A DNA stretch of 64,000 nucleotides from Clostridia bacterium (GTDB taxonomy: Bacteria > Bacillota > Clostridia > Oscillospirales > RGIG577), in NCBI GenBank assembly GCA_017513095.1, contig JAFWDJ010000007.1, forward strand, positions 39,733 through 103,732, read 5' to 3'. This document shows positions 2,054 through 21,497 of this stretch, one piece after another. The position numbers were made by a program, and so were the translations under genes. The notes beneath the pieces are model-generated. The model saw only the letters and a program-made list of their open reading frames with translations, did no database searches and was not told the DNA's origin. Positions within the stretch are counted from its first letter, which is position 1, and each line of letters starts with the position of its first letter.

Positions 2054-2082
2054 AAAAAACGCACGCCTAAGCGTGCGCTTTT
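2054..2082. terminator. Bidirectional rho-independent terminator (GCACGC-CTAA-GCGTGC flanked by A-run and T-run)
   Basis: The sequence aaaaaacGCACGCctaaGCGTGCgctttt reads as a hairpin plus U-tract on both strands. It lies downstream of cas6 on the minus strand. Confidence 0.7.
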
Positions 2083-2092
2083 GGGAAGACGG

Positions 2093-2137
2093 GTGCGAAA
2101 AAGATGGATTTGCGGTTTTAATGGATGGATTGGAATA
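2093..2137. repeat. Copy X of a ~45-57-bp conserved intergenic element (more diverged copy)
   Basis: gtgcgaaaaagatggatttgcggttttaatggatggattggaata aligns with copies Y (14422-14477) and Z (18107-18163). Confidence 0.6.
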
Positions 2138-2215
2138 CACGATTTGTGATATCACATACATAAAAGAACGGCGCTTCTGTCAAGAATACCGTTCTCATTT
2201 GTTAAAACAATCGCT

Positions 2216-5667: not shown

Positions 5668-5669
5668 AC

Positions 5670-8509: not shown

Positions 8510-8526
8510 CTCTCCTTTCCTTGAGA

Positions 8527-9098: not shown

Positions 9099-9145
9099 GG
9101 CAAACATTCATAAAAACACAGGCTTACAGGCCCTTTCTTTTTTAC

Positions 9146-9174
9146 ATTTTACCAAAAAATTTTCATTTTTGCAA
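9146..9174 (-). promoter_or_regulatory. CRISPR leader promoter (TTGCAA, 17 nt, TGgTAAAAT) within the A+T-rich leader 9099-9282
   Basis: The minus strand reads cTTGCAAaaatgaaaattttttggTAAAATg. Spacing is 17 nt with an extended -10 TG. It lies about 45 nt upstream of the first repeat. Confidence 0.6.
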
Positions 9175-9282
9175 GCGCAGCGTGAAAAAAGCGCGGTCTT
9201 TTTCGCTCCGGCACGTCCGATTTTTGTGCGAACGTATCATCGTATGCGGCATATTAAAGAGCTTCAGCGCCGCTGCCCGCGT

Positions 9283-10620
9283 TCAGATCACGCTTTTGAT
9301 GTATTCGATGCATTCGTCATAGACGCCGAAGATCACCGGGTCGCACGCCGGATAGCAGATTCTGATCACGTCTTCGATCTCCTTAAGAAGCTTGTCCGAA
9401 GTGATTCCACACGCGTCTTTTATCTCCTCCTCCGTTACGGTGACGAGCGTATGGGCAAGCCGATTGCGCAGATCCTTAAGTCCGGCGTAATGGGCAAAGA
9501 GCGAACGCGATCTTGGGGGAACGTCCGGGAAAAAGGAAATCAGATCGTCGCACAACATCGTGCTGGCCTCGTTTTGTTTTATTTCCCACCGTCTTTCATT
9601 CATTATCTTTTCATAATGCCGGTAGAGATCCGGACGCACGTCTTTCAGCCTGTCGGGGTAAAATAAGCGGCGGCGTTCCCGCGAGATGAATTTGTCGATC
9701 TCTCCTCCCGTCTTATTAAGCAGCCTGTCAAGCTGCGCCAGCTGCAGCGTTAGCGTAAGCGGCTCCAGATGAAGCAAAAACTGCGTATAGTTACCCGTCT
9801 TCACCAGATTCTTCATCATAAGATAATATTCGCTTGCGTCGCTGTATTCCCTTCGGCTCCCGGTTTTATAGGCATAGAGCTTAAACGGCAGACCCTTTAC
9901 TTCATCGGCAAGCTGCTTTGCGGGCTTTTCCCTGAGTCTGCTGCGTGCGGCAAGGTGCATTGTCAGCGCCCGCACGTTCTCCGGCAGGGATTCTTTCAGT
10001 TTTTCCAGCGCCTCAAAGTTGCGGTCGTCAAGCAGCGTCACGATCTGGCGTCTGAGGAACTGACGTCGTATGGCATACATCTCGGGCTCGACGCAGCGGT
10101 TCTCCGCCTCGGGCAGCTCATCCTCGTTGCATTCCAGCTCCAGCTCGATATCATACTCACTGTGATTGGCGCGTTGGCTCCTGCCCGCCCCCTTCTCGAA
10201 ATTAATGACCTGTATGCCCTTCGCGCGGTATCGTATATCCGTCACAAGCTGCGAAAGTATCATTTGCATCTGCGGAGTGCCGGAGGTGACGTTTACCAAT
10301 ATCTCGGCGTCGTGGTTCTCTCTTGCGAGCCGTGTCATTACTTCGTGGATAGGAATATCCAGCGCGTCGATATCGTGCGCATTCCTGACGCTTAGCTCCT
10401 CGTACCTAAAATCGGGCCGATAGCCGTTCCAGTGCGCCGAAATCCACTCCAGAGTTCTTTCAAACCGTCCGTCCTTCATAGCAAGCTCGCGCATCTCGGG
10501 AGTGAAGATGAGCCATGCGCTTTCCGGGCGATAGTAGCGTAAAATATGCAGCATCGGTCCGTCATGTTCACCGCGCACAGGATCAGTGGTGCCTATACAG
10601 CTCAAAAGAATCTGTTTCAT
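9283..10620 (-). CDS. csm6: Csm6 (CARF + HEPN cyclic-oligoadenylate-activated RNase)
   Basis: 445 aa. The N-terminus MKQILLSCIGTTDPVRGEHDGPMLHILRYYRPE resembles streptococcal/enterococcal Csm6 CARF domains. The C-terminal HEPN R-X4-H motif is RNRLAH. Confidence 0.8.
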   Translation of the reverse strand: MKQILLSCIGTTDPVRGEHDGPMLHILRYYRPESAWLIFTPEMRELAMKDGRFERTLEWISAHWNGYRPDFRYEELSVRNAHDIDALDIPIHEVMTRLARENHDAEILVNVTSGTPQMQMILSQLVTDIRYRAKGIQVINFEKGAGRSQRANHSEYDIELELECNEDELPEAENRCVEPEMYAIRRQFLRRQIVTLLDDRNFEALEKLKESLPENVRALTMHLAARSRLREKPAKQLADEVKGLPFKLYAYKTGSRREYSDASEYYLMMKNLVKTGNYTQFLLHLEPLTLTLQLAQLDRLLNKTGGEIDKFISRERRRLFYPDRLKDVRPDLYRHYEKIMNERRWEIKQNEASTMLCDDLISFFPDVPPRSRSLFAHYAGLKDLRNRLAHTLVTVTEEEIKDACGITSDKLLKEIEDVIRICYPACDPVIFGVYDECIEYIKSVI

Positions 10621-10678
10621 ATTGTTCCTTCCTTTCCGTTTGGTATTCCGCGAATCTTCACGGTTGCTCTGTATTATT

Positions 10679-10707
10679 ATTATACCAACCTCGCATCACA
10701 TTTCATA
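10679..10707 (-). promoter_or_regulatory. Duplicated extended -10 promoter, now upstream of csm6
   Basis: It has the same TATGAA, 17 nt, TGgTATAAT arrangement as 1989-2017. Confidence 0.5.
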
Positions 10708-10743
10708 GCAGAAAATCGAACTAATTTGCTGCGGCAATGCAGT

Positions 10744-10772
10744 AAAAAACGCACGCCTAAGCGTGCGCTTTT
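10744..10772. terminator. Bidirectional terminator (duplicate of 2054-2082)
   Basis: The hairpin GCACGC-CTAA-GCGTGC and its A/T flanks are identical to those at 2054-2082. Confidence 0.7.
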
Positions 10773-10828
10773 GGGAAAGGGGCTAAAAAGACGGATTAGA
10801 GTGAAATATCTCCACTCGCGCCCGCAGA

Positions 10829-10895
10829 CATTTCACACGCCGCAGGCGTATTTCACGCGCGAAGCGCGTTTCACAAATCCGTGAAACGGATTTAT
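10829..10895 (+). repeat. Three tandem modules, each ATTTCAC followed by a short perfect hairpin
   Basis: The modules are atttcac-ACGCCgcaGGCGT, atttcac-GCGCgaaGCGC and tttcac-AAATCCGtgaaACGGATTT. A GTGAAAT (reverse motif) sits at 10801. Confidence 0.6.
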
Positions 10896-10902
10896 TTTGT
10901 TG

Positions 10903-10948
10903 ACGCCTCCTGAGGACTGCGAGAAACAGTCTACGGGAGGCGTTTTAT
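10903..10948 (+). terminator. Long hairpin plus T-tract (plus-strand terminator with no obvious upstream gene)
   Basis: ACGCCTCC...GACTGcgagaaaCAGTC...GGAGGCGT followed by TTTTA. Confidence 0.5.
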
Positions 10949-11093
10949 TATACTATAAAAACTCAAAGCCCTTTGAAATCAAAGCGTATCGTGCAAAACA
11001 GGCAGCAGACTCTCTATCAAAATCTGCTGCCTGTTTGGGCTAACGATTATTGTTTTGACATAATCGGGGTTATCGTTAAATTTCATAACGTCA

Positions 11094-11279
11094 CTATTTG
11101 GAAAAATCAAACGAACCTTTAAAAACAGATTGCTGATGAAACTTGAGATACTCCATTCTCTTTTCGTTCATAGGTAATGGTTTTATAAATGTACCGTTCT
11201 TGTCGGCAGCGTAATCCTTCACGAGCTTCAGTATCTTGTTTTGCTCCTCCGGCAGATCGTCGGTCAGGGCGATGTTCAT
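11094..11279 (-). CDS. Small hypothetical protein (61 aa)
   Basis: The ORF has a good RBS (AAGGAG, 8 nt, then ATG at MNIALTDDLPEEQ). The N-terminus vaguely resembles the start of a receiver domain. No family was recognised. Confidence 0.35.
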   Translation of the reverse strand: MNIALTDDLPEEQNKILKLVKDYAADKNGTFIKPLPMNEKRMEYLKFHQQSVFKGSFDFSK

Positions 11280-11345
11280 CTGCGTCACTCCTTCATTGGC
11301 TATAAATAACCATAATATCATACCATATATTTTCCCCGTCCCGCA

Positions 11346-11383
11346 TGTCGATTCGGCACAGATTTCTGTCGATTCGGCACAGA
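11346..11383. repeat. Two perfect 17-bp direct repeats TGTCGATTCGGCACAGA spaced 21 bp start to start
   Basis: Copies at 11346-11362 and 11367-11383, in the divergent intergenic region between 11279 and 11420. Confidence 0.8.
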
Positions 11384-11419
11384 CCCCTTGCTAATCCCGG
11401 CGCATTCCCCTAAATTAAT

Positions 11420-11848
11420 GTGAAACGGCTGCGACTGTTATGCCTGCGGAAAGTGAGGAGATTTGCAGTGAATGCGGTGAACTATTTGAGAGATGACCTA
11501 AAATACGCTTCCACGGCGGGGATCCTGCGGGAAGAATCTGAGCGGATGGATTTGTTTCGAGACCCCCTTGACGGTCACGGGCACTACGACTATCCCTATG
11601 ATTTGGTCGTCGTGGCGCCGGAGGGCGCGAAAGGAATGAACATAGTGACGGAATGGTCGGACCGGTATCCGAACGCCGGGATCATCCGGCTCACCAGCGA
11701 CCCGGGTTTTCTCAAGGTCGCATTCAGCAAGCACCTGAGCGATTTTCTGATCTGCCCGTTCATCGAGAGCGAATTCCGTCAGTCCGTCCGAAACGTTCTC
11801 TACGGACCCTCAAGGAGGAAGCCCCGATGTATGGAGCCAGGCGGATGA
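11420..11848 (+). CDS. Hypothetical protein with a degenerate receiver-like C-terminal half (possible gene remnant)
   Basis: GTG start. The stretch DLVVVAPEG...IIRLTSDP...DFLICPF resembles a REC domain with the phospho-acceptor Asp and the conserved Lys replaced. Coding status is weak. Confidence 0.3.
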   Translation: MKRLRLLCLRKVRRFAVNAVNYLRDDLKYASTAGILREESERMDLFRDPLDGHGHYDYPYDLVVVAPEGAKGMNIVTEWSDRYPNAGIIRLTSDPGFLKVAFSKHLSDFLICPFIESEFRQSVRNVLYGPSRRKPRCMEPGG

Positions 11849-11902
11849 GACTATAGAAAAGCGGCATACCGACCCCACACAATACGAAAGGATCTGATCT
11901 GA

Positions 11903-14066
11903 ATGATGAAAACCACACTGAAATAAAGAGGAATGGCGCTGATGATAGCCCTGGCCATGTGCCTCTTTTTGGGGACGTTCATCCTCCCCCAGCAGGCCAG
12001 GGCAGAAAGCTACCAGACTTTTGACACCTCAAAGACCTAATTCATCTGGCTGAAAGAGGATAACGGGGCGATGAACTATCGCCGGAACGCCAACGGGCTC
12101 AACAAGGAGGATCATATCCACCTGGATGTCCCCTCCGGCGGCAACTGCGTGATGACCTTCAAGGACGGCGGCAGCGGCTATTACGGCATCCGGTTCGAGA
12201 GCCGGTATATTGACACGTCGGAAGACGACAGCAGCACCGGCCAATGGATCCATCAGTGGAGCGAGGATCTGAGCCGGGACAACCAGAAATTCAAATTCAT
12301 CCCGGTGGAGGGCGAGCCTGACACCTATTATATCCAGAGCAAAAAGGGCAATATCTATGTGGGACTGAAGGACAACAAAGCCGCCCAGCACACACCGCTG
12401 AAGACCGTCGACAGCAATCATAAGTGCAAATGGGTGGTGGTGCCCACGGATCGGGTGCCCTTCCCCACCGACAAATCCGAAACCTTTGACACATCCAAGC
12501 AGTACTATCTCTGGCTGAAGGAGGGCGACACCTGTACGTATGACTATCGCTGGAATGCCAACGGGACCGGCTGGAAGGATGAGATCCATCTGGACATCCC
12601 CGCCGGTGCCAATTGCAAGTTTACCTTCAAGGACATGGGCAACAACTATTATGCCATCAGGTTTGATAAACGGTATGTCGACATGAAGGACAACCTGCAG
12701 CAGTTGGGAAGGATCCTGTGGCAGTGGGAAGACGATCCGAACCAGGCCAACCGGAACTTCCGGTTCATCCCGGTGGAAGGCGAGCCCAATACGTATTACA
12801 TCCAAATCAAAAGAAACGGCTTGTATGTGGGGCTGGAAGGCTTCCAGGCTGCGGAACGATATCGGAATCTGGCGTGCGTCGATGCGGACCACGCCTGCAA
12901 ATGGGAGGTGATCTCCACCGATATGACCCAACTTGAGTCCAACGCCAAACTTCCGGGGGCCAGGGAACGCCCTGCCCAGCCGTATCCCCGTGGTGGTCTT
13001 CGACTCCGACGGCGGCAGCAGGGTGCCTTACCAGACGGTCCAAACCGGCCAATGCGCCGTGAAGCCCGGCGACCCTGTAAGAACCGGCTATACCTTCCAG
13101 GGCTGGCAGCTGAACGGCGCGGCCTATGACTTCAGCACCCCCGTCAACGAGAGCTTCACCCTGACGGCCATCTGGAAGAAGAACAGCTCCGGAGGAGGAG
13201 GAGGAGGAGGGGGAGCCGTCACCTATGCCGTCAGCCTGCCCGCGGACCTTGTGAACGCCGTCTCCCATGGAAAAATCGTCTCCAGCCATCTCAGCGCCCG
13301 GTCCGGACAGAAGGTGACCCTCACCGCAAGCCCTGACGAGGGCTGGCTGGTGTCCGGCGTCACCGTGACGGACAAGAACGGCAATGCCGTGACCGTCACG
13401 AAAAACGAAGACGGGACCTTCAGCTTCACCATGCCCTCGGGGGCTGTCACCGTGAACCCCGTCTTTGAGAAGAGCAAGGGGCCGGACGCCTCTGATGCGC
13501 CTGAGTCCTCCGATGTTCCAGACGCCGGGAAAGTCTTCGAGGATGTCCCCGAGGACGCCTGGTACCGCGACGCGGTGCAGTGGGCGGTGGAGAACGGCGT
13601 CACCACCGGCACCGACGAGACCCATTTCAGCCCCAACGCCCCCTGCACCCGCGCCCAAATGGTGACCTTCCTCTGGCGGGCCGCCGGAGAACCGGAGCCT
13701 GCGGGCGGTTCCGTGCCGTTTGGGGATATACAGGCCGGCAGCTACTATGAAAAGGCCGTAGCCTGGGCGGTGGAGAACGGCATCACCAACGGCGTGGACG
13801 AGACTCGGTTTGCCCCCGGCGACACCGTGTCCCGGGCTCAGACCGTCGCCTTCCTCTTCCGCTATGCCTTCCTCTATGCCAAGGCCGACGCGGAAGTCAC
13901 CGATGCGTTTGTGGATGTGTCCCCGGAGGCGTGGTACGCCGAGGCCGTGGCCTGGGCTGCAAAGAAGGGCATTGCTCAGGGCGTGGATGACACTCACTTT
14001 GCTCCCAACGACGACTGCGTGAGAGGACAGATCGTGACCTTCCTGTATCGCCTGATGGCCGGGTGA
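11903..14066 (+). pseudogene. Disrupted cell-surface protein: signal peptide, 2 lectin-like repeats, Flg_new (Listeria-Bacteroides) repeat, poly-Gly linker, 3 SLH domains
   Basis: The reading frame MMKTTLK*RGMALMIALAMCLFLGTFILPQQARAESYQTFDTSKT*FIWLKEDNGAMNYRRNANG has in-frame TAA stops at 11924-11926 and 12038-12040. The second TAA aligns with Y in the internal repeat FDTSKQYYLWLKEG. A frameshift near 12930-12960 joins ORFs 12071..13129 and 12933..14066. The SLH motifs are FEDVPEDAWYRDAVQWAVENGV, FGDIQAGSYYEKAVAWAVENGI and FVDVSPEAWYAEAVAWAAKKGI. Confidence 0.75.
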
Positions 14067-14136
14067 GAAGCAGCAGAGGGCTGAGATTCACCCGTAACGA
14101 TACGCCATAAAAGTTACAAAGAAAACCAAAATAAGA

Positions 14137-14171
14137 GAGACGGGATCGCTGCTGTGGCCCCGTCTCTTTTT
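14137..14171 (+). terminator. Rho-independent terminator after the SLH pseudogene
   Basis: GAGACGGG, 13 nt, CCCCGTCTC, then TTTTT. Confidence 0.7.
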
Positions 14172-14376
14172 GTCTGCAGCATAGTATTCTGTTGCCTCTT
14201 GATTAAACGGTTACACGTCCATTTATAGATGGGTAAACGGTTATCCGGATTATGGAGTGTTCAGATATGAATATTTTTATATTTTTCCGTCACGCGCTGT
14301 CTTTCGTTACAGGAATATGACCGGCCTTGGGGACGGCGTTCAGATATCAAGTCCAATGTCCTCAATAAATACAAGA

Positions 14377-14413
14377 AATCCGAACTCTGCCCTACCGGGA
14401 CAAAGTTCGGATT
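14377..14413 (-). terminator. Hairpin (AATCCGAACT...AGTTCGGATT) downstream, on the minus strand, of element Y
   Basis: 10-bp perfect stem, followed on the minus strand by a T-rich tract cttgtatttatt. Confidence 0.5.
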
Positions 14414-14421
14414 CTCAAGTG

Positions 14422-14477
14422 TGTCTATGGGGTACGTAAAAGATGGATTTGCGTTTTTGATAGATGGATTCGAACCC
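14422..14477. repeat. Copy Y of the conserved intergenic element with a tRNA T-arm-like core
   Basis: tgtctatggggtacgtaaaagatggatttgcgtttttgatagatggattcgaaccc. It differs from copy Z by 2 substitutions and 1 indel (hand alignment). It starts 13 nt after the stop codon of the minus-strand gene 14491..15102. Confidence 0.85.
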
Positions 14478-14490
14478 TCGAAGTAATGAA

Positions 14491-15102
14491 TTATTCTACG
14501 GAAATAATCAACTCTACCGCTCCATTGCCGAGGAGCGATGTAAGTTCTGAACTGTTCAGACCGTCTATTCTTCCAAGTCGAGTATACGCCCATGAATTGG
14601 AACCGTAAAACACAACGATTTGGTTGCCGGAATACAGCATGATATCACCGGCCTCGGTGGTCGTCTGCACGTCGTCTCTCGGAAGACTTGTACCGATTGG
14701 ACCGACCTGCTCGAAGCCGCCGTACATCGACATCTGTATCGCGATCGGCGCTTCCTCTGCAAACTCCCTCAGAGCTGTCACGGATTCGTTATCCTCCCAC
14801 GCGACGTATACTTCCTGCCCGTCGATTTTGAGTATCAGATCGGTTTTCACCGGAGTATCCTCCGTTTTTGGGATTGGTTGGCTGCCCGGCTCTGAGGTTA
14901 TATTCATCTGTGATTCAGTGCTTTCGGTTTTCTCGGGAAGTGCCGTGTCTTCCGCAACTGTTCCGAGCGAATCATTTACAGCTGCTGATACTGCTTCCGT
15001 CGCTTCTGTTTTCGCGCAACCGAATAAGGTAAACAGCAGCAGAAAGGCAATGCAAACCGTTACTTGCTTACGCCAGCGACTTGCCAAACCGGTATGCTTC
15101 AT
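14491..15102 (-). CDS. Cyclophilin-like-fold lipoprotein (putative)
   Basis: The start was moved to MKHTGLASRWRKQVTVCIAFLLLFTLFGC (lipobox). The C-terminal region ILKIDGQEVYVAWEDNESV...GDIMLYSGNQIVVFYGSNSW matches the cyclophilin-like domain family commonly found in LysR-linked clusters. Confidence 0.55.
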   Translation of the reverse strand: MKHTGLASRWRKQVTVCIAFLLLFTLFGCAKTEATEAVSAAVNDSLGTVAEDTALPEKTESTESQMNITSEPGSQPIPKTEDTPVKTDLILKIDGQEVYVAWEDNESVTALREFAEEAPIAIQMSMYGGFEQVGPIGTSLPRDDVQTTTEAGDIMLYSGNQIVVFYGSNSWAYTRLGRIDGLNSSELTSLLGNGAVELIISVE

Positions 15103-15610
15103 CTTGTTCCTCCTCCTTTCCGTTTGCTTCGCCCGCGTCGGAGATCCCTCCGCAGAACAGCGAGCCCGCAAGCTCCGCCTTTTCAAAGCAATCGACCCAG
15201 CCCTGCAACCCGCTGACGGCCTTTTCGGGAACGTATTCCTCGTCCTCGGTTGCGGTTGAAAGCATATATACCTTGCGGAATTTGTAGTCAGACGGATACA
15301 GCGGATTCAGACGGTCAAGCAGCGTCTTCATCTGTCCGCTCATCTCGTAGTAATAGATCGGGGTTACGAACACGAGCGTATCCGCATTCTTGACCTTTTC
15401 CGCGATCTCAACGGCGTCGTCTTTCAGCACACACTTTTGCGTCTTCTGACAGGCGAGGCAGCCGATGCAGTATCGGACCTCTTTCCCCTTCAGGCTGATG
15501 CACTCCACATCATGCCCGGCTTCCTTTGCGCCCCGAATCAGTTCCTCTGCCAGTCGGTCTGAATTGCTCTTTACCCGCAGGCTTGTTGTGATCACAATTA
15601 CCTTGCTCAT
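15068..15610 (-). CDS. Flavodoxin-like NAD(P)H-dependent FMN reductase / iron-sulfur flavoprotein
   Basis: MSKVIVITTSLRVKSNSDRLAEE...CIGCLACQKTQKCVLKDD is typical of the FMN-reductase fold with a Cys cluster. Confidence 0.7.
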   Translation of the reverse strand: MSKVIVITTSLRVKSNSDRLAEELIRGAKEAGHDVECISLKGKEVRYCIGCLACQKTQKCVLKDDAVEIAEKVKNADTLVFVTPIYYYEMSGQMKTLLDRLNPLYPSDYKFRKVYMLSTATEDEEYVPEKAVSGLQGWVDCFEKAELAGSLFCGGISDAGEANGKEEEQDEAYRFGKSLA

Positions 15611-16608
15611 TTCAGATTCTCCTTCATGAACGCTTCGATCTTATCGAATGGGATGCAGTTGCCTTCGCCGCCGTCGTACAAATCGGTGTGAGACACGCCG
15701 GGGATAATACAGAGTTCCTTGTTGTCCGCGTACTTGCTGTCCTTCACCATATCGGCGTAGGCGTCGCGGCTCATGTAACAGGAATGCGCCTTGTCGCCGT
15801 GGATCATCAAAACGGCGGAGCGGATTTCTTTTGCGTAGGTGAACAGGCGCATATTCATAAGCGAGGTGCCGGCGCTGGCCGCCCAGCCGTCGTTGGAGTT
15901 CAGGGAGCGGGGATGATAGCCGCGGGGAGTCTTATAATAATCATAGTAGTCCTTTACAAAGTACGGCGCGTCCTCCGGCAGAGGGTCGACTACGCCGCCC
16001 GCTCTGACATATTCACCGGTTTTGTAATCCTGCGTCCGCTGTGTATTGACAGCAATTCGCGCTTGATGCCGTGCTTCTTCGTTGTCGGCAGCGTCGAAGT
16101 ACCCGTTGCCGGCTACACGGGACATATCATACATCGTGGACGTCACAGTCGCTTTGACCCTTGTATCGATGCAGGCAGTCTGCAGAGCCATCCCGCCCCA
16201 GCCGCAGATGCCCATAATTCCGATGCGCTCGGGATCGACGTTCTCCTGCACGGACAGAAAGTCTACCGCAGCCTGAAAATCTTCCACGTCAATATCAGGG
16301 GAGTGCATCGCACGGGGGAAGCCGCCGGATTCGCCGGTAAAGGACGGATCGAAGGCGACGGTCAGGAAACCGCGCTCCGCCATCGTCTGCGCGTACAGGC
16401 CGGAAGACTGCTCCTTGCAAGCGCCAAAGGGGCCGCTGACGGCAATGGCGGGAAGCTTTCCGTCCGCATCCTTCGGCGTGTACATGTCCGCCGCGAGGGT
16501 AATGCCGAAGTGATTGACGAAGGTCACTTTCTTATGATCGACCTTCTCGCTTTTTGGGAACACCTTGTCCCATTCCTGCGTTAGCTTCAGTTCTTCTGTT
16601 TTCATCAT
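15607..16608 (-). CDS. Alpha/beta hydrolase family protein
   Basis: 333 aa with a nucleophile-elbow-like GICGWGG and overall dienelactone-hydrolase-like architecture. Confidence 0.65.
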   Translation of the reverse strand: MMKTEELKLTQEWDKVFPKSEKVDHKKVTFVNHFGITLAADMYTPKDADGKLPAIAVSGPFGACKEQSSGLYAQTMAERGFLTVAFDPSFTGESGGFPRAMHSPDIDVEDFQAAVDFLSVQENVDPERIGIMGICGWGGMALQTACIDTRVKATVTSTMYDMSRVAGNGYFDAADNEEARHQARIAVNTQRTQDYKTGEYVRAGGVVDPLPEDAPYFVKDYYDYYKTPRGYHPRSLNSNDGWAASAGTSLMNMRLFTYAKEIRSAVLMIHGDKAHSCYMSRDAYADMVKDSKYADNKELCIIPGVSHTDLYDGGEGNCIPFDKIEAFMKENLK

Positions 16609-16630
16609 GACCGTTTCATCCTTTCAGAGA

Positions 16631-16849
16631 TCAATTCGTTTTTGATTGTCGGATCAGGTAGTCCATGCGATCCACTCGGCGCTGACTCTCGTGCATTTCC
16701 TCCACCAGCTCACAACGCTGTAAACGGAGAAACCGGACAAGTTCATCTCGTGCGTCTCTTTGATAGAGCTCGATCGCCTTTGCGACCGTATCCTGACTCA
16801 TTCCCGCATCTTCCATGCAGTTTTTCAGTGTTTCTGTGTAATCAGCCAT
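16631..16849 (-). CDS. Small hypothetical protein (72 aa), first gene of the operon divergent from lysR
   Basis: ORF with an RBS. The start was moved to MADYTETLKNCMEDAG. No family was recognised. Confidence 0.4.
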   Translation of the reverse strand: MADYTETLKNCMEDAGMSQDTVAKAIELYQRDARDELVRFLRLQRCELVEEMHESQRRVDRMDYLIRQSKTN

Positions 16850-16979
16850 CGGTTGTCGTTCTCCTTGGCTCCTTTTCCCTTGAAGCAATTTCATTATAGC
16901 GTATTGATTTCTTTCTCGCTAATAGTTATAATGAATATCGTGATATTCACAACAGGAATATCAAGGAAAGGGGCTATAT

Positions 16980-17897
16980 ATGGAGATTCGCACTCTGAAA
17001 TACTTTCTCGCCGTTGCGCGGGAGGAGAATATGACCCGCGCGGCCGAGCAGCTTCACGTAACACAGCCCACGCTTTCAAAGGCTCTGAAATCTTTGGAAG
17101 ATGAGCTTGACAAAAAACTCTTTACCCGCCACAGCTTTAGCATTCGTCTGACGGATGAGGGCGTCTTGCTTCGCGAGCGTGCGGAGGATCTGATTAGCAT
17201 GGCAGACAAAATCGAAAAGGAGTTCCTCTCTCTGGACGATATCACCGGCGGGGAGCTTTTTCTCGGTCTTGCGGAGTCCTATCAGATCGCACACGTCGCA
17301 AACGCGATCAAGGCGCTGAAGGAACGCTACCCCAGGCTGCAGTATCACATTATCAGCGGCGATACCGAGCAGATTGCAGGGAAGCTGCAAAAAGGACTTC
17401 TCGATTTTGTCGTTCTTGCGGAAGATCCCGATCCGAGGAAATATGACTTCATCCCTTTCCCGGAAGCGGACGTGTGGGGGCTCGTTTTTCCCGCCGATGA
17501 TCCGCTTGCGGCAAAGGATCAGATCAGCCTCTCCGATTTGATCGGGCTGCCGCTGTTCTGCTCGGAGCAGGCATGGATACACGAATTTAAAGCGTGGGCG
17601 GGCAACAAATACGATGCGCTTCATCTGGAAGGATCGTTTCGCCTGTCCTACAACGGTTCGATCTTTGCAAAAGCCGGTCTTGGCTATTTGCTTACCTTTG
17701 ATAAACTGATCGACGTCTCTCCGGATAGCGGGTTGGTGTTTAGGCCGCTCACTCCGCGCCTTGAAACGAAGTTGTATCTCGTCTGGAAAAAGTATCAGAC
17801 GCACACGCCGATTGCGGAACGATTTTTGGAGCATATTCGCAACACGTTCCACTCGGGAGAAGACACCGTTCAAGAAGAAACCGGATTTTCTCATTAA
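16980..17897 (+). CDS. LysR-family transcriptional regulator
   Basis: The N-terminal HTH MEIRTLKYFLAVAREENMTRAAEQLHVTQPTLSKALKSLE is followed by a LysR substrate-binding domain. It is divergent from the hydrolase operon. Confidence 0.9.
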   Translation: MEIRTLKYFLAVAREENMTRAAEQLHVTQPTLSKALKSLEDELDKKLFTRHSFSIRLTDEGVLLRERAEDLISMADKIEKEFLSLDDITGGELFLGLAESYQIAHVANAIKALKERYPRLQYHIISGDTEQIAGKLQKGLLDFVVLAEDPDPRKYDFIPFPEADVWGLVFPADDPLAAKDQISLSDLIGLPLFCSEQAWIHEFKAWAGNKYDALHLEGSFRLSYNGSIFAKAGLGYLLTFDKLIDVSPDSGLVFRPLTPRLETKLYLVWKKYQTHTPIAERFLEHIRNTFHSGEDTVQEETGFSH

Positions 17898-18053
17898 ACA
17901 AGCCCTTTTGGAGCTGAAATCAAATTAGACACGGGGGTTCGGATCGTAAGACTTTTTCCCGGTTTCCGTTTTGAACTTTTTTGATTTTCGTGTCCAATTT
18001 GAAGTCCAAAATCAAAAGCCCAAAAAACCGCATGAAATCAAGGAAAATAAAAA

Positions 18054-18101
18054 AACATCCTTTGTTGTCCAAACCCGGGGGGTCAGATTGCAAAGGATGT
18101 T
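18054..18101 (-). terminator. Strong minus-strand terminator downstream of element Z
   Basis: AACATCCTTTG...CAAAGGATGTT, an 11-bp stem followed on the minus strand by TTTTTTTATTTT. Confidence 0.7.
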
Positions 18102-18106
18102 TCATT

Positions 18107-18163
18107 TGTCTATGGGGTACGAAAAAGATGGATTTGCGTTTTTTGATAGATGGTTTCGAACCC
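18107..18163. repeat. Copy Z of the conserved intergenic element
   Basis: tgtctatggggtacgaaaaagatggatttgcgttttttgatagatggtttcgaaccc. It starts 13 nt after the stop codon of the minus-strand gene 18177..19418. Confidence 0.85.
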
Positions 18164-18176
18164 ATGTAGGGCTTTT

Positions 18177-19418
18177 TTATTCTGATCCTTTAGATTTAAA
18201 AGCTTCTACTATTGGGATCATATTCGTTTTCCCTATATCTAATGAGGAAGCATGATTAAATAGCTGGTTAAATATATATTTCTTATCTTGAATTTTAGTT
18301 TGCTCAAAATAGCACTCCCTCTCGCTCAATGTGATAGTAACTTCCATAAAAGTCAACACATCCTCAGTACTAAAGGCCAAACGCTCTTTGGAAGTCATCT
18401 GCAGATATTCTTCTTTCAAAGGGAGCGTTGTATACGTCATCATGAAATAAACGGCAACGATATCCTCTTTGGCAATACGTGTTGCAACTTCATTAACTTT
18501 TCTATATATTGTTGTTTTTAGTCCACCGTTGAAAGAGTCAAGCTCAAATGTACTATCGCTAAAAACAATCATAAAAGTTGGCATAAGATCCGTTGTCCCA
18601 ATCACAACATTCATTAATACAAACTTGTTGAAATAATCGTCTCCCATCTTTGAATACAGCGGATGACGATTAAAATTGCTTAACGGAATACGTACACGAT
18701 CTCTTTTATCACCAGAATTCATTATCATTGCATATCTTTCTGCTCGCTCGAATTTTTTCTTTTGAGGATAATATACATAATCGTTAATTAAAAACATATC
18801 TCTTGGGATTTGTGAAAACTTTAGTCCGGAAATCTTTTCCATAATCACGTCAGAAAGTTTACTATGTTCTCCTACCTCCGCATACATAGCTTTCAGAAAA
18901 CATGACATGCTATGTATTCCTTCAATTATTTTTTTATATACATCTTCTTTACTAGTTTTATCATAGAAAGAAAACTCGGATGAGAAAAATACTTCAATTG
19001 GATTAATGCTGGCAAAAAAACTTTTCAAATCATCCAGGAGGTCAGATAATTCCATATCATTTTCAACGGAAAAGGTCTTGCTTAACACATGCATTCCAGC
19101 AAATGGAAAGAAAACCATAATATCAATTTGTTTGACAAGCTGAAATGGGTGCTCTTTCGTTGTTTCATTTCTTTTGTCAATCATCCACCTACAAGATGAA
19201 AGGTATTTGTCTCTATTCTTTTCGTAAATAGTTTTACAATCTGTGTGTGCAATAGATTTTTGCAATACAAATGTGACATTCCTATACTCAGAGAAAAAAC
19301 TATCAAGGGCTGATATATTGTCAAAAAAATCAGCTTCCTTGTTGAATCGCTCCAGGGAATTTAGCGCACTATAGTATTTTTGCAATGCCGGAAATAGATA
19401 GTCAGACATTATTATCAA
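18177..19418 (-). CDS. Orphan 413-aa protein, no recognisable domain, in an A+T-rich islet
   Basis: Long uninterrupted ORF in markedly A+T-rich DNA, 45 nt downstream of the KilA-N gene on the same strand. I could identify no motifs. Confidence 0.7.
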   Translation of the reverse strand: MIIMSDYLFPALQKYYSALNSLERFNKEADFFDNISALDSFFSEYRNVTFVLQKSIAHTDCKTIYEKNRDKYLSSCRWMIDKRNETTKEHPFQLVKQIDIMVFFPFAGMHVLSKTFSVENDMELSDLLDDLKSFFASINPIEVFFSSEFSFYDKTSKEDVYKKIIEGIHSMSCFLKAMYAEVGEHSKLSDVIMEKISGLKFSQIPRDMFLINDYVYYPQKKKFERAERYAMIMNSGDKRDRVRIPLSNFNRHPLYSKMGDDYFNKFVLMNVVIGTTDLMPTFMIVFSDSTFELDSFNGGLKTTIYRKVNEVATRIAKEDIVAVYFMMTYTTLPLKEEYLQMTSKERLAFSTEDVLTFMEVTITLSERECYFEQTKIQDKKYIFNQLFNHASSLDIGKTNMIPIVEAFKSKGSE

Positions 19419-19463
19419 CTCCTTAATGAAATCCTCTCAAAACAAAATATGGTGCGTCCGCTC

Positions 19464-20072
19464 TTATTCAGTATTGGCTGGATCAAATGTTTCCATTCTC
19501 GAACTTGTGAAAAACTTCAACACTTCGTATCTAAACTCAGCATCATTCCACATTTCAAAATCGCAGGCAATAAAGGGATGGGCCATCGTCCCACCGCCTT
19601 TGCCCTGCTTTGAGGTAATGCCAGTGGCATTCGTCAAGTCGATCCATTTCTTTGGTGTCAGAGTAAACTGCGGTGTTTTTGCATCAACCACTAGTTTTTG
19701 AAATGCCGCCTCATTGAATTGCGGATTGTTGCTCCGTTCCCACGCTGCCAGGAACTCAACTGTATTGCGGCTTCGCAGCCAGCTTTGAATTAAGTAGCTT
19801 GGATTCTCGGCGTCAAATTTGCGTGCAATTTCAGTCAAGGAAATATAATCATCGGATGGATGCAGATATTTGGCAACTGTTTCTTCGAGATAGGCGTTCA
19901 TCTTTGGCTCATAGATTGGCGCCTCATCCTTTAATATCGACTCAAAGATAACATCCAAATAGCGACTCCAGTCCTCTGCTCTGATGGGGGATAGCTTATT
20001 CACACGCACCAAAAACTTCTCTCTGGTTAGAGCGTATGCCCATTCCAGTTCCTCTTTGGTCGCTCTTGGCAT
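19464..20072 (-). CDS. KilA-N domain DNA-binding protein with a ~70-aa N-terminal extension
   Basis: DYISLTEIARKFDAENPSYLIQSWLRSRNTVEFLAAWERSNNPQFN...WIDLTNATGITSKQGKGGGTMAHPFIACDFEMWNDAEFRYEV matches the KilA-N family pattern. Confidence 0.7.
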   Translation of the reverse strand: MPRATKEELEWAYALTREKFLVRVNKLSPIRAEDWSRYLDVIFESILKDEAPIYEPKMNAYLEETVAKYLHPSDDYISLTEIARKFDAENPSYLIQSWLRSRNTVEFLAAWERSNNPQFNEAAFQKLVVDAKTPQFTLTPKKWIDLTNATGITSKQGKGGGTMAHPFIACDFEMWNDAEFRYEVLKFFTSSRMETFDPANTE

Positions 20073-20421
20073 CTGTTTTCACCACTTTCGCTTGATTGGG
20101 ATTCCGGCAGTTTTCCCCTTTCAAAAAGTACACGTCACAGTATTCTTCAAAATCGATGATACCCTTCGTGTATTTCCCATTGTTTAGCAGTTTATTAAGC
20201 ACATCTCTGCTCCAATGTGCATTTCCAGAGGGAGAAGGAATTCCTTGGTTGAATAAATAGCTTTGAATAGATTCCAAACTATTTCCAGCTCTGTAGAGCC
20301 CGAAAATAGTTTTGACAACTTCCGCTTGTTCGGGCACGACTTCAACAAGCCCCTGCTTGTCCCTTCTGTAGCCGTAGCAGATTCTTCCGAAAAGTCTTGA
20401 TTCGACTAATGACAATTTCAT
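19996..20421 (-). pseudogene. Remnant of a large serine recombinase (recombinase domain only; catalytic resolvase domain and zinc-ribbon/coiled-coil missing)
   Basis: FGRICYGYRRDKQGLVEVVPEQAEVVKTIFGLYRAGNSLESIQSYLFNQGIPSPSGNAHWSRDVLNKLLNNGKYTKG matches the recombinase (PF07508-like) domain. No resolvase domain is encoded upstream (20422-20670 is non-coding). The 3' end overlaps the KilA-N ORF. Confidence 0.7.
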
Positions 20422-20628
20422 AATTTTGGTTCCTTTCTAATTATACTGATTTCAACGTGCGTTTTCAATATAAAACACAAATATTAGTGGAATTAGTGCA
20501 AATTCAAAACCTCTATATTAGTGATTTATTTCGTCGGCTGATTGTTTTGGAGTTGTTTTTGATATGAAAATGGAGCAGATTTCCTCGAAAATCCGCTCCA
20601 AAACAGCATTTATTCACTTATTTGTGGG

Positions 20629-20671
20629 ATAAAAAGAGACAAACAGGCTTTTATCCAGCTTGTTTGTCTCT
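20629..20671 (-). terminator. ssrA terminator
   Basis: The minus strand reads AGAGACAAACA...TGTTTGTCTCT followed by TTTTTA, immediately after the tmRNA CCA end. Confidence 0.75.
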
Positions 20672-20673
20672 TT

Positions 20674-21028
20674 TGGTGGAGGCGAGGAGAGTCGAACTCC
20701 TGTCCGAAAACACGTCCCCCCGACTTTCTACGGATATAGCCTGATGTTTATAATTCCCTACGATGCACGCCGACAGGCGGGCTTACATTTTCGGTAGCTT
20801 CATTTTACATGACGCGGGCAAAGCTTACCGCGTACACGTTCACCGCTGATCGACGCCCCATCCCATGCCGCGGTCCTCACGGGCGGGACGGCTGTGCGTA
20901 ATTACGCAGCTACTGCTAATCTGTTAGTTCTGTTAGCGTTTATTTTTAAAGTTGCCCGTTTTTAAATGGCCGGGCGCCATTATCCGCTTATCGGGCTTCG
21001 GCATCCCCGTCGAAACCGGTACGCCCCC
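20674..21028 (-). ncRNA. ssrA: tmRNA (transfer-messenger RNA)
   Basis: On the minus strand the 5' end is GGGGGCGTACCGGTTTCGACGGGGATGCC and the 3' end is GGAGTTCGACTCTCCTCGCCTCCACCA (T-arm, acceptor and CCA). The internal tag frame GCT AAC AGA ACT AAC AGA TTA GCA GTA GCT GCG TAA predicts the tag ANRTNRLAVAA. It lies directly downstream of smpB. Confidence 0.9.
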
Positions 21029-21032
21029 GTAA

Positions 21033-21497
21033 TTATCTCATTTTCTGCTTTATCGCGCGGTCTATTTCACGGTTCGCGTCGCGCGACGCAATGCTCTGAC
21101 GCTTGTCGTATTCCTTCTTGCCCTTTGTAAGCGCTATTTCAACCTTTACGAGCGAGCCTTTGAAATACACGCTCAGCGGGATTATCGCGCATCCGTCCTG
21201 CTTCATTTTACCGAAAAGGCGGTTTATCTCGCGCTTGTGCATGAGCAGCTTTCGTTCCCGCAGCGGGTCTTTATTGAAAATATTGCCCTTTTCGTAAGGG
21301 CTTATATGCATTCCCCTTACAAAAAGCTCGCCGTCCTTTATAAAGCAGTACGAATCCTTCAGATTGAGCTGCCCAAGACGCACGGACTTAACCTCCGTGC
21401 CGAAAAGCTCTATCCCCGCTTCGAACTTCTCAAGTATAAAGTAATCGTGATACGCTTTTTTATTTTTTGCCGCAATTTTTACAGAAGGAGCCGACAT
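21033..21497 (-). CDS. smpB: SsrA-binding protein SmpB
   Basis: 154 aa with KNKKAYHDYFILEKFEAGIELFGTEVKSVR and LLMHKREI motifs. Confidence 0.95.
   Translation of the reverse strand: MSAPSVKIAAKNKKAYHDYFILEKFEAGIELFGTEVKSVRLGQLNLKDSYCFIKDGELFVRGMHISPYEKGNIFNKDPLRERKLLMHKREINRLFGKMKQDGCAIIPLSVYFKGSLVKVEIALTKGKKEYDKRQSIASRDANREIDRAIKQKMR

Follow-up and report, generated by a model that had tools for sequence, protein, structure and literature searches.

The CIMEs and integrative mobilisable elements of Firmicutes are integrated units that are not autonomous; they retain att sites and are mobilised when site-specific accretion joins them to an autonomous element, CIMEs being defined as deletion derivatives without recombination genes. 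In P2- and P4-like elements, variable defence hotspots lie between conserved genes, and AbiH is a single-gene abortive-infection protein. In the ssrA-GIs of Dehalococcoides, 20-bp direct repeats of the ssrA 3' end mark the boundaries and an integration module of six genes includes the catalytic recombinases DsiB and DsiA; some units without this module have been proposed to be cis-mobilisable by accretion (McMurdie et al. 2011, PMC3146451). The tycheposons of Prochlorococcus integrate at a set of tRNA genes and at the tmRNA gene, where they build genomic islands (Hackl et al., 10.1101/2020.12.28.424599).

We analysed a 64-kb stretch of DNA (the window) in which an A+T-rich islet lies directly downstream of the tmRNA gene ssrA. 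The islet belongs, as one intact copy, to a family of small cassettes that had not been described before and that are inserted exactly after tRNA or tmRNA genes, and its layout runs from left-end hairpins through a predicted promoter, a recombinase-domain-only (RD-only) protein, a KilA-N protein and a variable cargo slot to a 56-nt right end:

20674..21028, minus strand: tmRNA gene (ssrA), the insertion target (ARAGORN; Rfam RF00023, 162 bits)
21033-21497, minus strand: smpB
18107..20673, minus strand: the whole cassette (islet 1), 2,567 bp, GC 0.375, its ends set by sister-cassette DNA similarity
20632..20673, minus strand: left-end hairpin 1 (AAAGAGACAAACAAGC...GCCTGTTTGTCTCTTTTT), terminator-like (inverted repeat I3)
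20571..20600, minus strand: left-end hairpin 2 (TGGAGCGGATTTTC...GAAATCTGCTCCA, then a T-run), terminator-like and kept in sister cassettes
20467..20523, minus strand: two CACTAATAT-containing direct repeats, 34 nt apart (repeat family D2)
20440..20468, minus strand: near-consensus sigma-70-type promoter, TTGAAA-17-TATAAT, agreeing at 11 of 12 positions, with the RD-only ORF starting 19 nt further on
19996..20421, minus strand: RD-only protein, 141 aa, matching Pfam PF07508 only, with no catalytic domain and no zinc ribbon
19464..20072, minus strand: short-type KilA-N protein, 202 aa (Pfam PF04383), overlapping the RD-only ORF by 77 nt
18177..19409, minus strand: cargo gene for a 410-aa protein of an uncharacterised family, with homologues and no family match
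18107..18162, minus strand: right-end motif (GGTTCGAAACCATCTATCAAAAAACGCAAATCCATCTTTTTCGTACCCCATAGACA), 56 nt, 84-96% identical to cassette ends in loci L083, L084, L085, L094 and L163

As in the Dehalococcoides ssrA-GIs, candidate island units stand in tandem directly downstream of ssrA, are associated with serine recombinases and have CRISPR modules among their cargo. However, the far boundary here is an element-borne motif, and the distal direct repeat of the target's 3' part that is a trait of classical tRNA/tmRNA islands is absent, the right end and the ssrA 3' end having only GTTCGA in common. The recombinase-like gene here also lacks a catalytic domain, members of the cassette family are found at 12 or more tRNA genes besides, and the units are far smaller, cassettes measuring about 2-5.6 kb. 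The Prochlorococcus tycheposons are alike in carrying modular, 'plug-in' cargo (10.1101/2020.12.28.424599).

A first-pass annotation of this DNA had described the islet as conspicuously A+T-rich, and this holds: the GC content at 18107-20673 is 0.375 against a window mean of 0.519 and is the lowest of all 2,570-nt stretches in the 64 kb. The three ORFs of the islet (141, 202 and 413 aa) are co-directional on the minus strand, and no integrase of its own stands next to a boundary, none of the three genes having a catalytic recombinase domain (Pfam). The same annotation had let the islet begin after the tmRNA terminator, whereas its first base is 20673, directly after the 3' CCA of the tmRNA, and the hairpin at 20632-20673 is the left end of the element itself. 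In L094, L088, L073, L003, L089 and L078 the sequence of hairpin 1 stands behind genes for tRNA-Arg, Ser, Tyr and Leu; because the same hairpin sits after other tRNA genes elsewhere, we assign it to the element, and it is not the native ssrA terminator. The far end, at 18107, is closed by the conserved right-end motif, which has a T-loop-like start, two (A/T)CCATCT boxes and CA at its terminus. The motif is element-specific, its variants following the lineage of the head module (the RD-only and KilA-N genes) and not the target tRNA; an apparent correlation of the T-loop-like start with the T-loop of the target tRNA was accounted for by cassette lineage. A scan of viral contigs for the motif as a phage attP gave only two matches, and one of these contigs is among the cassette loci analysed here.

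Between the left end and the first gene, the CACTAATAT repeats lie upstream of the promoter and overlapping it, and we regard them as candidate operator sites; a 'cactaatat' box occurs in L089, L078 and L096 as well, although these are distant cassettes. The promoter itself may well be functional, judging by its match to the consensus.

The stretch of DNA similarity to the sister loci begins no more than ~25 nt before the end of the tRNA or tmRNA gene, runs for 1.2 kb at 77-89% identity and stops just beyond the KilA-N stop codon. The junction is invariably CCA followed directly by AAAGAGAC, and the right-end motif recurs at cassette ends. In most loci a tRNA or tmRNA gene lies ~190-600 nt upstream, at least 12 tRNA species being represented, and many loci are near-duplicates from gut metagenomes, so that counts are higher than the true number of independent cases. 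At one chromosomal site (tRNA-Arg-CCG ... TAAACGCGGCAAGCG) there is one cassette in L088 and two in L094, belonging to two lineages with base-identical junctions. Head modules that are 96-97% identical occur at different tRNAs with cargo that is different, deleted or lacking (L087/L088 and L073/L003), the cargo-deleted cassettes L073 and L087 retaining an intact head module, and cassettes form tandem head-to-tail arrays in L085, L094 and L083. With ends this sharp and conserved, and with polymorphism at one identical chromosomal site in related strains, the cassette does not fit the earlier description of a decayed, immobilised element.

The RD-only ORF matches PF07508 over profile positions 1-64 of 102 (E 2.9e-10, 40.7 bits, cut-off 21.1) and PHROG 95 'integrase' (E 1.5e-18), and in Pfam searches it matched neither the catalytic resolvase domain PF00239 nor the zinc ribbon PF13408. 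A catalytic domain of 140 aa would not fit upstream, because only 252 nt lie between the start codon and the tmRNA, and the ORF stops 56 residues past the recombinase domain, within the KilA-N gene, lacking the zinc ribbon and coiled coil of large serine recombinases. The first-pass annotation had read it as a relic that retained the recombinase domain alone; the domain content was correct, but the gene is intact and conserved, with at least 304 homologues, the best 120 of which are all 82-201 aa and mostly 141 aa long. It is intact in every sister cassette examined except L078-L082 and L091, and the family is under strong purifying selection as judged by dN/dS (0.07-0.13, where measurable).

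The KilA-N domain (PF04383, E 7.9e-12, 45.4 bits, cut-off 23.8) occupies residues 73-188, in agreement with the unusual N-terminal extension of ~70 aa noticed earlier. This extension has three helices and is family-conserved ('MPRATKEELxWAY...'), and because it is conserved across the protein family we take it to be genuine coding sequence, despite the overlap with the RD-only ORF; the 645 KilA-N homologues cover 95-100% of the length. An AlphaFold2 model of moderate confidence (pLDDT 70.5) gave nothing informative against PDB folds (best E 2.6). The protein has its KilA-N core in common with PDC-S22, a single-gene KilA-N candidate of PADLOC (E 8e-41), but only profile positions 14-137 of 281 are matched, the C-terminal half of the profile is missing from the 202-aa protein, which thus gives no full-length match, and the window protein has the N-terminal extension. 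In 39 of 45 loci the gene immediately ahead of the short-type KilA-N gene is an RD-only gene, a pairing that holds down to 37-44% RD identity, whereas the long-type KilA-N relatives (267-340 aa) never have an RD-only partner (0/83 loci). At least 12 unrelated cargoes lie behind one and the same KilA-N gene. The conserved pair is thus RD-only with KilA-N, and the 413-aa gene is one of many exchangeable cargoes.

Among the sister cargoes are AbiH (E 1e-41; in the slot in L094), SIR2/ThsA-like proteins, an MkoA/MkoC-like helicase with DUF2726, an HNH effector (PDC-M68A), PDC-M30A with a radical SAM protein, DUF4062 and DUF5677; roughly half of those examined have no defence annotation. The earlier proposal of horizontally acquired DNA at ssrA, with its genes as cargo in a defence-type context, is supported. 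The cassettes resemble the hotspots of P2/P4-like elements in that a conserved scaffold offers a single slot to defence genes which are unrelated and take each other's place, but scaffold, host phylum and insertion chemistry are unrelated, and no similarity of the 410-aa protein to AbiH or the other cargoes could be detected (hhalign probability <=0.4%; 19 sister-cassette cargo proteins compared with the 410-aa family).

The cargo gene in the window probably starts at ATG 19409, with AAGGAG 9 nt upstream, giving the 410 aa of an identical database protein (P0001); a longer ORF from TTG 19418 (18177-19418) gives 413 aa. The KilA-N stop codon lies 54 nt from the ATG, against 45 nt for the longer ORF. 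The protein had been called an orphan without a recognisable motif. It is no orphan, having 638 homologues at 90% clustering, forming 333 clusters at 50% identity and ranging over Bacillota, Bacteroidota, Spirochaetes and Verrucomicrobia, with full-length members of ~400-435 aa. There is, however, no family match in Pfam, PHROG or NCBIfam, and none in PADLOC-DB v2.0.0 (5,027 models, E up to 1). A profile search of 1.84 billion representatives, aimed at fusions and at distant relatives with known domains, revealed no known domain in any full-length relative, the sole longer match being partial (P0346, 756 aa), and the sole match of the family profile to PDB sequences, ATG12 at E 0.77, was dismissed as chance. 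The AlphaFold2 model is confident (pLDDT 89.2), and a Foldseek search with it found no fold match in the PDB, the best being partial and to kinesin motor domains (E 0.11, TM ~0.12); against BFVD there were only partial matches to uncharacterised phage proteins of 150-210 aa (E ~1e-3). We found no recognisable nuclease, NTPase or other motif in the protein and no conserved PD-(D/E)xK or P-loop pattern in the family. A HEPN assignment was rejected: the R83-x6-H90 spacing is HEPN-like, but H90 is replaced by Q, K, A or E in many members.

The 410-aa family is widespread and self-contained; its members are soluble, single-gene proteins whose genes travel on many kinds of mobile element and in type I restriction-modification operons. 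The gene is lower in GC than its flank in 62 of 64 loci and no conserved neighbour was found, its immediate neighbours representing 114 different Pfam families (raw count). It sits between hsdS and hsdR in L014 and has hsdM upstream in five loci, and it occurs on serine-recombinase and Tn916-like elements and on integrative/conjugative elements, frequently beside Xre-type HTH genes; one locus is on a viral contig. A row of three 417-aa genes in L017 proved not to be paralogues. Two of the three are identical copies of a second, different gene, and we read these as probable Mutator-family transposases because the neighbour set contains exactly two Mutator-family transposase matches.

Downstream of the cassette, the window contains two further right-end motifs:

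14422..14476, minus strand: second right-end motif, 95% identical, closing the 3.7-kb unit 2 (14422-18106)
8799-9034: CRISPR array, near the islet
2082..2135, minus strand: third right-end motif, degenerate, closing the 12.3-kb unit 3 (2082-14421)
2054-2081: hairpin with a T-run, after the third right-end motif

Unit 2 carries LysR, hydrolase, flavodoxin-like and cyclophilin-like genes, and unit 3 a type III-A CRISPR-Cas locus; both have a host-like GC of 0.52 and are without a head module. The hairpin at 2054-2081 is probably the native ssrA terminator, 18.6 kb from ssrA. The window may thus hold three tandem units after ssrA, of which units 2 and 3 may be old insertions, a different type of element, or not insertions at all.

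We consider it reasonably likely that the islet is a complete, mobilisable, modular cassette of gut Clostridia, of a kind that enters tRNA and tmRNA genes exactly behind their terminal CA and builds up in tandem, and that its 410-aa cargo would act as a stand-alone anti-phage protein. The two left-end hairpins would end the tRNA or tmRNA transcript, the cassette has a predicted promoter of its own ahead of the head module and the cargo slot, and the right end finishes in CA. The mover would be a large serine recombinase of a co-resident autonomous element, with CA as a 2-bp crossover and with action either in trans or in cis, and the head-module proteins would bind the element's ends or operator, where they would control expression or recruit or block the recombinase. 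A helper of this kind is suggested by the one informative locus, L096, in which a tandem of three genes for large serine recombinases is closed by a right-end-like motif, directly against the left hairpin of a cassette. A classical integrase with T-loop crossover was rejected, each target tRNA keeping its own acceptor 3' strand and the right end being element-specific. The cassettes are like CIMEs in being non-autonomous integrated units whose ends are candidate att sites, but they differ in having a conserved, selected two-gene head module of their own; the base-identical tandem junctions and the L096 element are circumstantial observations of the accretion type. Accretion apart, a bolder form of the proposal would make the cassettes a new non-autonomous, integron-like class of defence cassette, with a CA crossover after CCA, large serine recombinases acting in trans, the dead recombinase domain as an att-site adaptor and the 410-aa protein as a new-fold, single-protein anti-phage system; this we put forward tentatively and hold to be doubtful.

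The cassettes could instead be immobile, as old island scaffolds spread vertically or by homologous recombination and with 'ends' that are merely terminators. In favour of this, no catalytic recombinase is linked to them, two large-serine-recombinase queries having detected no catalytic serine recombinase in the window. Nor did we find a circular junction of the cassette or, among contigs with an identical SmpB protein, an empty ssrA site, and the GC of units 2 and 3 is host-like. Yet near-identical head modules occupy different tRNA genes, two lineages share one site with base-identical junctions, arrays run head to tail and the insertion point is always exactly after CA, which makes immobility very unlikely. 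Less probable still, indeed extremely improbable, is the view of the first-pass annotation, in which the recombinase is a dead relic on a decayed, immobilised island and the KilA-N and 413-aa genes make up a two-gene defence system in which each depends on the other. As had been stated, both genes point the same way; they lie 45-54 nt apart and probably form one operon, and the KilA-N domain matches PDC-S22. However, in 70 genomes of different species encoding the 413-aa family, the gene has a KilA-N neighbour in one and the pair is missing from the other 69, which refutes the two-gene system under the condition on co-occurrence that the annotation itself had set. In the sole genome with the pair (L003) the KilA-N gene has an in-frame stop, the cargo being intact and 92% identical with dN/dS ~0.16. 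This KilA-N gene also heads at least 12 unrelated cargoes, and the recombinase ORF, under purifying selection, belongs to a family of short proteins.

Regulators such as BrxR and CapH/CapP head diverse defence operons, and the RD-only and KilA-N proteins could similarly form a shared phage sensor or transcriptional switch for exchangeable effectors, the tRNA location being secondary. In every case the head module precedes the cargo on the same strand with short gaps between them, one strong predicted promoter carries the repeated CACTAATAT boxes, KilA-N is a DNA-binding domain present in a PADLOC defence candidate, and the right-end variant co-varies with head-module lineage. Against this, AbiH, SIR2 proteins and the 410-aa family are found elsewhere without a head module, L073 and L087 retain theirs after loss of cargo, and the exactness of the junctions, the arrays in tandem and the variety of tRNA sites speak for a function at the level of the element. 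We think such a switch quite unlikely as the main explanation, but it is compatible with a mobile cassette, the two not being mutually exclusive. As for the cargo, we propose from context that the 410-aa protein is an anti-phage gene of stand-alone, abortive-infection type that would need neither KilA-N nor a fixed partner, because it fills the slot of AbiH, SIR2, Mokosh-like and HNH genes and travels on mobile elements and in restriction-modification operons. It could instead be an addiction toxin, a competitor-exclusion, anti-defence or niche factor of mobile elements, with which the lack of a match among 5,027 PADLOC models, the lack of nuclease, NTPase or other motifs and of a fold match, and its frequency on integrative/conjugative elements beside Xre-type HTH genes would agree. 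Its position between hsdS and hsdR in type I restriction-modification operons and the slot it has in common with defence cargoes argue otherwise, its near absence from viral contigs is contrary to a phage-encoded anti-defence role, and we regard a function outside phage defence as unlikely.

If the mobile-cassette reading is right, gut Clostridia would own a compact vehicle, easy to recognise, by which immune genes are sampled and shuffled next to genes for tRNA and tmRNA, its signature being a tRNA ending in CCA, the adjoining AAAGAGAC hairpin, an RD-only gene, a KilA-N gene, a cargo and the 56-nt end. For serine recombinases it would be an unusual choice of target to insert directly behind the CA of many tRNAs, and an element-borne, terminator-like hairpin matters when island boundaries are annotated. 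The selected, catalytic-less recombinase domain raises the question of whether non-autonomous elements bring a site-recognition subunit of their own with which they hijack the serine recombinase of a helper. The cargo slot could in that case serve as a ready discovery tool, since about half of the cargoes examined, the 410-aa family among them, lack any annotation.

The A+T-rich islet that the first-pass annotation placed directly after the tmRNA gene (ssrA) is real: a GC profile and an ORF scan recovered both the A+T-rich stretch and its three ORFs, all co-directional, although where it begins and ends, and several of the terms used to describe it, had to be corrected. Its GC content is 0.375 at 18107-20673, as compared to a window mean of 0.519, making it the lowest-GC 2,570-nt window of the 64 kb. 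The islet and its borders comprise:

18107-18162, minus strand: right-end motif GGTTCGAAACCATCTATCAAAAAACGCAAATCCATCTTTTTCGTACCCCATAGACA, 56 nt, downstream of the cargo gene
18177-19418, minus strand: cargo ORF, 413 aa, no family match
19464-20072, minus strand: KilA-N ORF, 202 aa, KilA-N domain at residues 73-188
19996-20421, minus strand: recombinase-domain-only (RD-only) ORF, 141 aa, sole Pfam match the Recombinase domain
20468-20440: near-consensus promoter TTGAAA-17-TATAAT, just upstream of the RD-only ORF
20674-21028, minus strand: tmRNA gene
21033-21497, minus strand: smpB, just upstream of the tmRNA gene

The cargo ORF had no match in Pfam, PADLOC, PHROG or NCBIfam; its start is probably the ATG at 19409, preceded by AAGGAG, which yields 410 aa, and the identical database protein is also 410 aa long. 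Rather than the decayed island carrying a two-gene system that had been proposed, the islet is one intact representative of a cassette family that has not been described before and in whose cargo slot defence genes accumulate.

The RD-only protein had been taken for a recombinase relic. A database search returned 304 proteins, the best 120 of which are 60-94% identical and all 82-201 aa long, with no full-length recombinase among them. Computed on the 108 codons outside the KilA-N overlap, dN/dS was 0.07-0.13 when the window was compared with those sister cassettes whose dS is unsaturated, and 0.04-0.24 over all pairs, some of which reach dS saturation; this is a conserved family of short proteins. 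Its partner has 645 homologs, and those of 190-210 aa cover 95-100% of the window protein, including its N-terminal 70 residues ('MPRATKEELxWAY...'). Conservation of this extension shows that it is genuine coding sequence and that the 77-nt overlap with the RD-only ORF is real; the same short ORF recurs upstream of the KilA-N gene in related loci. Of 45 loci encoding the short-type (150-235 aa) KilA-N protein, 39 have an RD-like ORF immediately upstream of its gene, as against 0 of 83 encoding the long, PDC-S22-like type; like the other locus counts given here, these include many near-duplicates from gut metagenomes and are not independent samples. A distant subfamily, whose RD protein has 117 aa and is only 37-44% identical, keeps the pairing as well. 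Together, the pairing and the conservation of RD-only define a conserved two-gene unit of RD-only and short KilA-N protein, here termed the head module. RD-only is not indispensable everywhere, since its ORF is disrupted in loci L078-L082 and L091. The long-type KilA-N genes (PDC-S22-like, 267-340 aa; L124-L162, L165-L223) often sit just downstream of tandem large serine recombinase (LSR) genes, as in L137, L139, L151, L157 and L165, suggesting an origin of the head module in the recombinase-proximal end of LSR/long-KilA-N elements.

DNA similarity between the window and its sister cassettes starts inside the tRNA or tmRNA gene, within its final ~25 nt, and spans 1.2 kb at 77-89% identity, ending just beyond the KilA-N stop. 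At the left junction, AAAGAGACAAAC... always comes straight after the tRNA CCA, and the left-end hairpin is found also after tRNA-Arg-CCG, Ser-GGA, Ser-CGA, Tyr and Leu genes, so that it belongs to the element and is not, as previously read, the ssrA terminator. Where enough upstream sequence is available, most loci have a same-strand tRNA gene about 190-600 nt ahead of the head module. Targets include at least 12 tRNA species plus tmRNA. At the other end, the right-end motif closes the cassettes of L083, L084, L085, L094 and L163 with 84-96% identity, is present in diverged form in L078 and L003, and varies with head-module lineage, not with the tRNA. Cassettes also occur in tandem, head to tail, with the right end of one meeting the left hairpin of the next (...GACA|AAAGAGAC...): two of them follow tRNA-Arg in L094, at least two are present in L085, and in L083 the cassette comes after another right end.

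Site-specific insertion is best supported by L088 and L094, the same site on the chromosomes of related strains (flanks 92% identical over 3.9 kb), occupied by one cassette of one lineage in L088 and by two cassettes of another lineage in L094. Their junctions read CCA|AAAGAGAC on the left and ...(C/G)ACA|TAAACGCGGCAAGCG on the right. Head modules of L087 and L088 are 96-97% identical, yet they differ in both tRNA and cargo. An eight-codon mini-ORF, MEGMPPDN*, within L073 6604-6713 and L087 7604-7713 is the sole remnant of the 184-aa trypsin-like cargo of L088 (corresponding region L088 7604-8470); it joins the start and the end of that gene and is therefore the product of an internal deletion, which spared the head module and the right end. 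In L003, the 413-aa gene takes the corresponding cargo position of a cassette that is otherwise 97% identical.

About 20 cargo proteins from sister cassettes were surveyed by Pfam and PADLOC scans, with the following matches:

L094: AbiH, E 1e-41
L096: 992-aa SIR2 protein, ThsA- and Dsr1-like
L095: helicase like Mokosh MkoA and MkoC, with DUF2726
L084: HNH-type effector, PDC-M68A match
L089 and L090: PDC-M30A-like proteins, then a radical SAM protein
L085: DUF4062 and a weak DUF5677 match
L078: DUF5677

Further cargoes matched DUF2806 or a trypsin-like fragment, roughly half had no Pfam or PADLOC match, and none resembled the 410-aa family (hhalign probability at most 0.4%). Given these defence-gene cargoes, the slot behaves like a defence hotspot, of which the 410-aa gene is one occupant.

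That gene was neither an orphan nor half of a two-gene system, as had been claimed. We found 638 homologs (E ≤ 1e-3, 90%-clustered database), nearly all of 405-425 aa, and a profile search of 1.84 billion representatives gave 333 clusters, whose full-length members share a single architecture of ~400-435 aa, with no fusion to a known domain seen. Of 70 loci from different species (Bacillota, Bacteroidota, Spirochaetes, Verrucomicrobia, Kiritimatiellae and others), only L003 (Eubacterium sp. OM08-24) has a member of this KilA-N family next to the cargo homolog. There, the cargo protein is 92% identical to that of the window and its gene is intact (dN/dS about 0.16), whereas the KilA-N gene (L003 9347-9955) is interrupted by an in-frame stop (YLIQS*LRS). 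This stop, in a sister cassette at tRNA-Ser-CGA, falls at the position of invariant W98 and could reflect a real pseudogene or a sequencing error. No neighbour is conserved: the biggest neighbour cluster covers 5 of the 70 loci, and 114 Pfam families are represented among the 124 immediate neighbours. Recurrent company comprises serine and tyrosine recombinases, transposases, conjugation genes and Xre-type HTH genes, and also type I restriction-modification genes: hsdM lies upstream in 5 loci, and in L014 the gene sits between hsdS and hsdR, overlapping both. Homologs are carried on a small serine-recombinase element (P0108) and on a Tn916-like mobilisable element (P0049), GC content is below that of the flanks in 62 of 64 loci, and viral contigs yielded 1 locus among 2.9 million. 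The P0108 variant (L234-L239) is common in gut Lachnospiraceae, on an element encoding DUF3990, an Xre-type HTH protein, two unknown genes and a 482-aa serine recombinase, inserted beside cotJ genes.

An AlphaFold2 model of the 410-aa protein (44-sequence alignment; mean pLDDT 89.2, pTM 0.85) predicts a three-helix bundle at the N terminus and, after it, two alpha/beta regions. Foldseek found no fold match in the PDB (top E 0.11, TM about 0.12), and neither did a sequence search of the PDB with the family. In BFVD, several phage proteins 150-210 aa in length, all uncharacterised, matched the model (m9560213d504c) weakly and only in part (E 1e-3 to 5e-2, target-normalised TM 0.35-0.62, probability up to 1.0); one domain may have phage relatives. 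The family alignment has 37 invariant columns, many of them charged (D39, E44, R46, R83, K96, D213, E224, D288, K301, R306 and E368), and an enzymatic or ligand-binding site is plausible. Inspection of the sequence showed no signal peptide or membrane segment. We consider the protein a widespread, structurally unassigned, stand-alone candidate for defence.

Two further right ends, in the same orientation, lie downstream within the window, so that the 18.6 kb after ssrA appears to consist of three tandem insertions:

14422-14476, minus strand: second right-end copy, 95% identical
about 2082-2135, minus strand: third right-end copy, degenerate
2054-2081: hairpin with T-run, after the third right-end copy
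Unit 1: the RD-only/KilA-N/410-aa cassette
Unit 2: LysR, hydrolase, flavodoxin-like and cyclophilin-like genes
Unit 3: SLH and ricin-lectin proteins and a complete type III-A CRISPR-Cas effector locus
2216-10620, minus strand: type III-A effector locus, wholly within the third motif-bounded unit
9283-10620: csm6 (CARF and HEPN)
8799-9034: CRISPR array, 36-nt repeat, 3.6 copies
6140-8509: cas10/csm1
5670-6140: csm2
5002-5667: csm3
4047-5021: csm4
2944-4050: csm5
2216-2965: cas6

The hairpin at 2054-2081 may be the displaced native ssrA terminator, and neither cas1 nor cas2 was seen among the ORFs scanned at the type III-A locus. Units 2 and 3 have a host-like GC content (0.52) and no head module, which makes their status less certain. 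Right beside csm6 is a Gut-1 RNA (Rfam RF01706, 74 bits, E 5.7e-13) at 10825-10902 on the minus strand. Elsewhere in the window, long coding tandem repeats at 59645-61233, 61678-62706 and 63486-63658, with periods of 279 nt (5.7 copies) and 69/138/207/276 nt, probably belong to a repetitive cell-surface protein.

The anatomy and comparative genomics of the cassettes are demonstrated above; that they move, which recombinase helps them, what the head module does and that the cargo serves defence are inferences. With its own promoter and no predicted terminator between its genes, the cassette is likely to be co-transcribed as three genes, and the two left-end hairpins, which separate the promoter from ssrA, likely insulate it. 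It encodes no catalytic recombinase, and two LSR queries found none in the window. The only hint of a helper is L096, where three tandem LSR genes (2235-6337; the first split, the second without a catalytic domain) precede a junction (6337-6440) at which a right-end-like motif (GGGTTCGGATACGC...GGGTTCACA) abuts the left hairpin of the cassette with SIR2 cargo, suggesting that autonomous serine-recombinase elements share the insertion chemistry of the cassettes. CA is invariant in both the target CCA and the element right end, which fits the 2-bp crossover of serine recombinases. Our best guess is that the cassette would be mobilised in trans, or by accretion with such autonomous elements. An excised circle would join right and left ends as ...CGTACCCCATAGACA|AAAGAGACAAACAAGC..., loss of unit 1 would restore GCCTCCACCA|AATGAAACATCC, and loss of the whole array GCCTCCACCA|AAAGCGCACGCTTAGG. 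The two head-module proteins, RD-only and KilA-N, would bind to the operator or the ends of their own element; CACTAATAT boxes (20467-20523) and, in the right end (18107-18162), (A/T)CCATCT boxes are candidate sites. Regulation of the cargo by the head module is an alternative to be taken seriously, and one compatible with such binding.

The closest described analogue is the ssrA-specific islands of Dehalococcoides, which are tandem and serine-recombinase-associated, some lacking an integration module and some carrying CRISPR modules (PMC3146451). Unlike the cassettes, these islands are bounded by ssrA 3'-end repeats and encode catalytic recombinases (PMC3146451). Tycheposons likewise target tRNA and tmRNA genes and carry plug-in cargo, but encode their own integrases, and PDC-S22 has only the KilA-N core in common with the KilA-N protein of the window. 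Neither the RD-only/KilA-N head module nor the cassette family turned up in a full-text literature search, which is weak evidence of novelty. Taken together, the islet is more interesting than was proposed, in another way: as part of a cassette family, not as a two-gene system.
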